Source: Escherichia coli (GTDB lineage: Bacteria > Pseudomonadota > Gammaproteobacteria > Enterobacterales > Enterobacteriaceae). Taken from it: DNA of 64,000 nucleotides. Numbering within the stretch: the stretch's first letter is position 1; the number at the start of each line of letters is the position of its first letter. Below, one piece after another: positions 6,666-7,052 of this stretch. The position numbers were made by a program, and so were the translations under genes. The notes beneath the pieces were generated by a model, which saw only the letters and a list, made by a program, of their open reading frames with translations, searched no databases and had not been told where the DNA came from. The DNA lies in assembly GCF_003991155.1 (NCBI RefSeq), contig NZ_CP031293.1. One strand, 5' to 3'.

Positions 6666-7052
6666 TTAACGATACTTCTGGTGATAGGCGTTGCGGGTCG
6701 TTTTCAGTTGCTCTGCGGCAGCCTGCGCTTCTTTTACTTTACCTTCATTTGCCAGCTTCAGCGCGTCGTCAATCTGACCGACCAGAATGTCGAAACCGTG
6801 GCGGAAGTCTTTCATTTCCGGGCTGTCCGGTGATTTGCCTTCAAGCTTCGGCGGCGTCGCTTTTTGCGCATCCAGCGCCGCAGCGCGCATTTTAGTTAAC
6901 GCGTCTTTGACTTGCACCGCGTTATCGGCTTTTTCGACCACTTTTAAATTGTCGTTGAGGGTTTCCATATTGTCTTCCAGATCAGCGGCAAACGACGCCG
7001 AACTGAATACCAATGAGGAGACGGCAAGAATAGCTAACAGGCTTTTACGCAT
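6666..7052 (-). CDS. cybC: Soluble cytochrome b562 precursor, intact 128 aa with signal peptide
   Basis: Translation [37 protein letters not shown]...NAYHQKYR matches cytochrome b562. Confidence 0.92.

Follow-up and report, generated by a model that had tools for sequence, protein, structure and literature searches.

An intact cytochrome b562 gene is the norm in Escherichia coli, with the K-12 lineage as the exception

The locus between pmbA and nrdG in Escherichia coli raises the question of whether a strain with a full-length cybC, the gene for soluble cytochrome b562, has kept something that the species has otherwise lost, and whether the neighboring toxin-antitoxin genes have anything to do with it. 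An earlier note on the DNA analyzed here, a stretch of 64,000 nucleotides from E. coli contig NZ_CP031293.1 (hereafter the window), had read the frame as an intact 128-aa precursor with a signal peptide and had described K-12 MG1655 cybC as a truncated pseudogene. From this it had proposed that the strain retains a functional copy and that the adjacent toxin-antitoxin pair may mark the same variable spot.

Positions 5400-7200 of the window are 100% identical to E. coli 2016C-3878 (NZ_CP029747.1), an isolate from a human rectal swab, and over 50 kb of the window the identity with the chromosome of that strain, in which PGAP labels the identical ORF cybC, is 99.996%. Further along the window, at about 37100-46700 between rplI and ytfB, we observed a cluster comprising a TRAP transporter (three genes), an FAD-dependent oxidoreductase, a CoA transferase, an enoyl-CoA hydratase, a sugar-phosphate isomerase/epimerase, a 3-ketoacyl-ACP reductase and a TetR regulator. 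This cluster is covered to at least 80% in only 1447 of 5426 complete E. coli genomes, and K-12 DH1 retains just 306 bp of its TetR gene.

By the program-made ORF list, positions 6666..7052 hold 128 codons and a stop on the minus strand, so that the coordinates in the earlier note, which names no strand, are exact. The product matches the Pfam profile PF07361 (Cytochrom_B562) over its entire length, positions 1-102 of 102, with E=2.5e-33 and 115.2 bits (the curated threshold being 30 bits), which places it in this family. Chain 9tmp_A, a 128-aa entry named 'Soluble cytochrome b562', matches it from the first residue to the last (E=4.5e-76), 125 of the 128 residues being identical. The three substitutions, V39I, V46A and G72D (window residue first), are by this comparison conservative allelic variants, and the residues of the window recur in other strains (ECO20, UTI89). 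Precursor residues 23-128 align gaplessly to residues 1-106 of the 106-aa mature chains 1apc_A, 256b and 1qpu (E=8.3e-63). Because these chains begin at residue 23 (ADLEDN), residues 1-22, which are the same as in the reference precursor 9tmp_A, are predicted to be a signal peptide cleaved before ADLEDN. M29 and H124, which we take from the 256B structure to be the axial ligands of the haem (mature Met7 and His102), are both present and are invariant across six strains and the reference. The sequence ends in ...NAYHQKYR, and its near-identity to solved chains points to the same four-helix-bundle fold, only three residues differing from 9tmp_A. Sequence comparison revealed no signs of degeneration in the ORF. 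Judged on these features, the frame is not a chance ORF and shows every feature to be expected in a functional gene, much as the earlier note had read it, and we regard it with high confidence as an ordinary intact chromosomal cybC from an E. coli other than K-12. The features of the locus are collected in Table 1.

Table 1. Coordinates of features at and around cybC (positions are those of the window unless another locus is named)
Feature	Position	Strand	Basis or remark
treBC	upstream	-	annotated order in 2016C-3878
nrdD	3164-5302	+	ORF list, annotation
nrdG	5487-5951	+	ORF list, annotation; stop abuts toxin stop, 0 nt between
RelBE-type cassette, ~705 bp, from nrdG stop to cybC 3' flank	5952..6656		alignment with MG1655, O157, ECO20, UTI89
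RelE-family toxin, 96 aa	5952..6242	-	PF05016 E=2.8e-14; PGAP
RelB-family antitoxin, 80 aa	6232..6474	-	PF04221 E=6.1e-16; PGAP
Palindrome TGTAATGCTATAATGCATTACA containing TATAAT, 25 nt upstream of antitoxin start	6499..6520	-	scan: 8-pair inverted repeat
Terminator-like hairpin, 11 pairs, 8 nt past cybC stop	6633..6658	-	terminator scan and alignment
cybC CDS, 128-aa soluble cytochrome b562 precursor	6666..7052	-	ORF list, Pfam, PDB 9tmp_A, PGAP in identical strain
cybC stop codon	6666-6668	-	within ORF coordinates
Mature 106-aa haem protein, predicted four-helix bundle	6669..6986	-	aligned to 1apc_A/256b/1qpu
Predicted haem ligand codon His124 (mature His102)	6681-6683	-	alignment and established knowledge of ligands
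Predicted haem ligand codon Met29 (mature Met7)	6966-6968	-	alignment and established knowledge of ligands
Predicted signal peptide, codons 1-22	6987..7052	-	identical to 9tmp_A residues 1-22
26 bp kept here and deleted in K-12 (GTGAGCAATGCGTAAAAGCCTGTTAG)	7034..7059	-	multiple alignment, checked coordinates, junction count
Shine-Dalgarno-like AAGGAA, 7 nt upstream of cybC ATG	7060..7065	-	read from sequence; putative function
Empty site of ERIC-like repeat, pmbA-cybC spacer	7070..7083		alignment
pmbA/tldE	7108-8460	-	ORF list, annotation; upstream of cybC, same strand, 55-bp spacer
yjgA	8505-9104	+	ORF list, annotation
mpl	9187-10560	-	ORF list, annotation
cybC remnant, K-12 C3026	locus L001 2011-2376		PGAP CDS
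ERIC-like repeat, K-12 C3026	locus L001 2384-2528		
cybC remnant, MG1655	locus L004 1989-2356		curated pseudogene
Orphan RelB-like antitoxin, AF57	locus L008 767-1006		

The predicted working of the product follows from these features in outline. The 128-aa precursor would be exported by a Sec-type route through its 22-residue signal peptide, with cleavage after Ala22 and before Ala23, and the 106-aa mature protein would adopt its four-helix-bundle fold in the periplasm, with one haem b bound non-covalently by Met7 and His102. In this form it would act as a soluble one-electron carrier, and cytochrome b562 is described in a passage of one paper as a periplasmic four-helix-bundle electron-transfer protein (PMC2490766). 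We infer expression, export and haem loading of CybC in this strain from the sequence.

The lesion in K-12 is a short deletion at the 5' end of cybC, the end away from the toxin-antitoxin genes. The MG1655 gene, b4236 (4459488..4459855, 368 bp), is a pseudogene in the curated record. When the 5' end of cybC was aligned among the window, MG1655, O157:H7 Wll001, UTI89, ECO20 and AF57, only K-12 of the six strains lacked 26 bp, a segment that reads GTGAGCAATGCG(A/T)AAAAGCCTGTTAG across the aligned strains. The deletion takes the 7-nt spacer between the ribosome-binding site and the start, together with 19 nt of the ORF, namely the ATG and the 16 nt behind it. These 19 nt amount to six and a third codons (MRKSLL-A); 368 of the 387 nt remain, and the downstream frame is open. 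It shows no microhomology at its junction, and a one-base shift either way fails to reproduce the K-12 sequence. The loss would leave K-12 with an ORF that lacks both a canonical start and a charged n-region. Thus, the earlier note's statement of a truncated MG1655 pseudogene proved correct, and the alignment with K-12 showed no identical intact ORF there. We also observed a conflict of annotation: PGAP gives the K-12 remnant as a 366-nt 'cytochrome b562' CDS from ATT, whereas the curated MG1655 record has a pseudogene. Automated RefSeq annotation of K-12 genomes accordingly treats a damaged cybC allele as normal, against the curated record.

The frequency of the two states in the species was obtained from 5426 complete E. 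coli genomes with two queries. An 85-nt query of the start region, running from the leader through nucleotide 64 of the ORF, found a match in 5425 of them, and in 5070 of these at least 80% of the query was covered, a count that refers to the start region of cybC. The remaining matches begin at query position 41 only, which is the K-12 pattern. A 50-nt query centered on the K-12 deletion, neither half of which could pass the E-value limit alone, was found in exactly 355 genomes, always with 100% coverage and at least 99% identity. Since 5070 and 355 add up to 5425, the two classes cover every genome with the cybC locus. All 60 of 60 sampled junction carriers belong to K-12 laboratory lineages, among them MG1655, BW25113, DH5alpha, DH1, C600, J53, MC4100, TG1, S17-1, NCM3722, HMS174 and O16:H48 isolates. 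Over the whole ORF, five non-K-12 strains, that of the window included, were checked and all have 128-aa ORFs.

Because 5070 of 5425 genomes keep the start and 355 carry the K-12 junction, it is K-12 that lost the gene rather than the present strain that retained a rarity: an intact cybC is the species norm. The proposal of a retained functional copy therefore stands as far as the ORF goes, which is intact with all the features expected from its sequence, but retention is nothing noteworthy in a species where this is the rule. The contrast of intact cybC with the K-12 pseudogene is also already known in the literature. Passages in published papers call cybC 'cryptic in K-12 strains' (PMC4361602) and 'a pseudogene in strain MG1655 ... 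of unknown function' (PMC3349551), mention the Keio cybC knockout as a neutral pseudogene control (PMC6945024) and report a cybC transcript much higher in the B strain REL606 than in MG1655 (PMC3446290). The cybC of the window itself thus adds nothing new, other than as a reminder that K-12 is an atypical strain at this locus and that studies of what cytochrome b562 does in the cell should be carried out in a strain other than K-12.

On the 3' side of cybC lies a pair of genes of the RelBE type. The toxin, in addition to its PF05016 match, recovers the E. coli RelE chains 4v7k and 4fxe with E~1e-34, 60 of 95 residues being identical to RelE. In the pairwise alignment it conserves the equivalents of K52, K54, R61, R81 and Y87, which we take from RelE-ribosome structures to be the RelE catalytic residues. 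It can be placed in the RelE/ParE superfamily by both the profile and these residues. The antitoxin aligns over its full length with the RelB chain 4fxe_A (E=1.2e-20), and its gene lies upstream of the toxin gene on the same strand with an 11-nt overlap, as in a RelBE operon. On sequence, the gene pair at 5952-6474 is a chromosomal RelBE paralogue and a candidate toxin-antitoxin system. The palindrome upstream of the antitoxin gene is a likely promoter/operator of the cassette, by analogy with autoregulated relBE operons. A second pair, chpS-chpB, was observed at about 17300-17900 of the window in its usual place beside ppa (coordinates converted from the annotated record, with an offset of about 1), and thus the window has two type II toxin-antitoxin loci.

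In the alignment with strains that are free of it, the cassette takes the place of a hairpin of about 35 bp, the convergent terminator of nrdG and cybC in those strains. On the left, the final codons of nrdG have changed synonymously from TTG CGA TGA to TTA CGT TAG, and the nrdG 3' end of the cassette-bearing sequence has extra substitutions, which together suggest a recombination tract extending beyond the cassette. At its right edge, the cassette brings a new hairpin just past the cybC stop, standing in for that of the cassette-free strains, and ends about 10 nt from the stop. The terminator scan found no terminator-like hairpin where nrdG and the toxin gene converge (5951|5952). One might imagine that the cassette rewires two operons where their 3' ends meet and couples the toxin-antitoxin pair, and perhaps the formation of the cybC 3' end, to oxygen status: with the shared terminator lost, anaerobically induced nrdDG transcription would read antisense through toxin and antitoxin, or the reverse. 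We consider such coupling highly improbable; if true, it would concern the roughly 8% of E. coli with the cassette.

Cassette DNA is present in 454 of the 5426 genomes (about 8%), in full length in 391 and in part in 63, and is always chromosomal and single-copy. In the plasmid collection, its relatives show at most 72% identity (about 72% on Klebsiella records and 67% on Pantoea plasmids), and the sole 98% match there is a 4.9-Mb chromosome filed among the plasmids. Neither transposase genes nor flanking or terminal repeats were seen at the cassette in the alignment with cassette-free strains. A plasmid-derived or mobile cassette was considered as the reason for the intact cybC and was rejected, there being no close plasmid copies, repeats or transposases. 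About 60 genomes, e.g. AF57 and O145:H28 RM12581, keep the antitoxin only. AF57 has lost its toxin gene by a deletion that runs exactly from one to the other of the 8-bp direct repeats TCATCCAG (window 5956-5963 and 6239-6246), which leaves an orphan RelB-like antitoxin.

The spacer on the 5' side of cybC is polymorphic in its own way. A dispersed repeat of about 128 bp, which we take from its consensus to be ERIC-like, is present in this spacer in K-12, O157:H7, UTI89 and AF57 and absent from it in the window and ECO20. It occurs in most genomes. Its family was located 14438 times across 5002 genomes (median 3 per genome), and in 3883 genomes a copy reaches at least 95% identity with that of K-12; none was found in the window. 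Whether the repeat had brought about the truncation in K-12 was also considered; O157:H7, UTI89 and AF57, all of which combine it with an intact cybC, rule this out. The same spacer also contains, at 7081-7102 and antisense to pmbA as well as cybC, a strong plus-strand hairpin that resembles a terminator and has a T7 tail; on the coding (minus) strand it has no T-run. Its role may be to terminate pmbA transcripts or to stop transcription in the antisense direction.

Among the strains compared, cassette and repeat are found in every combination, and the cassette-bearing ones have either of the two major cybC allele types, with or without the repeat (the window against AF57 and H2/H3), so that the cassette, the repeat and the K-12 deletion are independent of each other. 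The cassette concerns the 3' end of cybC, while the K-12 lesion is at its 5' end, beside the repeat polymorphism. Hence, of the suggestion that the toxin-antitoxin pair marks the same variable spot, what holds is that a variable cassette does adjoin cybC; it lies, however, at the 3' end, is absent in K-12 and is unlinked to the lesion. As a marker of that lesion the pair fails altogether, being absent from more than 4600 genomes with intact cybC and assorting independently of the 5' polymorphisms. The gene sits between two independently polymorphic spacers, and neither the 3' cassette nor the 5' repeat bears on its integrity.

The distinction between an intact gene and a pseudogene would be functionally meaningless if the K-12 allele were still translated from ATT, the original codon 8, where its residual ORF starts. 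We regard this as very unlikely, even though the remaining frame is open, the K-12 protein sequence is that of the O157:H7 allele apart from the 26-bp deletion, and PGAP calls the 366-nt CDS in K-12 C3026 and in all K-12-lineage entries among the matches listed. The AAGGAA motif is still found just upstream of ATT, but at a spacing reduced to 2-3 nt, and upstream of the junction the K-12 frame meets a TGA, with no in-frame ATG, GTG or TTG thereafter. A product started at ATT would be devoid of MRKSLLA and with it of the signal peptide's positively charged n-region (Arg2, Lys3), and by the established rules for Sec signal peptides loss of the charged n-region should impair export. The pseudogene status in the curated MG1655 record also speaks against translation, as do passages describing the gene as 'cryptic' in K-12 (PMC4361602) and its transcript as far below that of REL606 (PMC3446290).

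Two further readings concern the present strain rather than K-12, and each has at best a very slight chance of being correct. In one of them, the intact cybC was imported or preserved together with the cassette as a single mobile or hitch-hiking unit. The closeness of the cassette to the cybC stop, the hairpin that it supplies after cybC and the hint of a recombination tract in the recoded and substituted nrdG 3' end would all fit such a unit. However, the start is intact in 5070 genomes and cassette DNA present in only 454, the cassette-free O157:H7, UTI89 and ECO20 have full 128-aa ORFs, the cassette occurs with both major allele types, with or without the repeat, and neither a close copy on a plasmid nor any transposase genes or terminal repeats were seen. 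In the other, equally improbable, the ORF is intact but silent here, having no promoter of its own or a 3' end changed by the cassette. Indeed, a consensus scan of 5900-7400 detected no sigma-70-type promoter and the native convergent terminator has been replaced. That scan is an insensitive test, however, and cybC may share a transcript with pmbA or have a promoter that is weak or departs from the consensus. Moreover, its 5' region (the ribosome-binding site, the spacer and the pmbA-cybC hairpin) is the same as in ECO20, which is free of both cassette and repeat, a terminator-like hairpin follows the gene and the ORF is undegenerated. The reading that we favor remains that of an ordinary intact cybC, typical of the species and damaged in K-12.

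The closest known systems set this reading in perspective. E. coli CybC as known from PDB entries 256B, 1QPU and 1APC, and from the 9TMP precursor, shares with the product of the window the 128-aa length, the signal peptide, the Met7/His102 pair and the position of its gene between pmbA and nrdG; it differs in having I39, A46 and D72 where the window has V39, V46 and G72. The 'BRIL' fusion partner is derived from E. coli cytochrome b562. The b4236 locus of MG1655 is orthologous to that of the window, but K-12 lacks the 26 bp, has the upstream repeat of about 128 bp and is without the downstream cassette. The RelB/RelE pair of K-12 (PDB 4FXE, 4V7J/K) and the pair of the window are alike in their antitoxin-first order and overlapping genes, and the palindromic candidate operator of the latter, which overlaps TATAAT, was likewise counted as a likeness to K-12 RelBE. 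K-12 relBE lies in the Qin prophage region. The RelBE pair of the window, situated in the nrdG-cybC spacer and found in about 8% of the genomes, is by its sequence and position a paralogue distinct from it.
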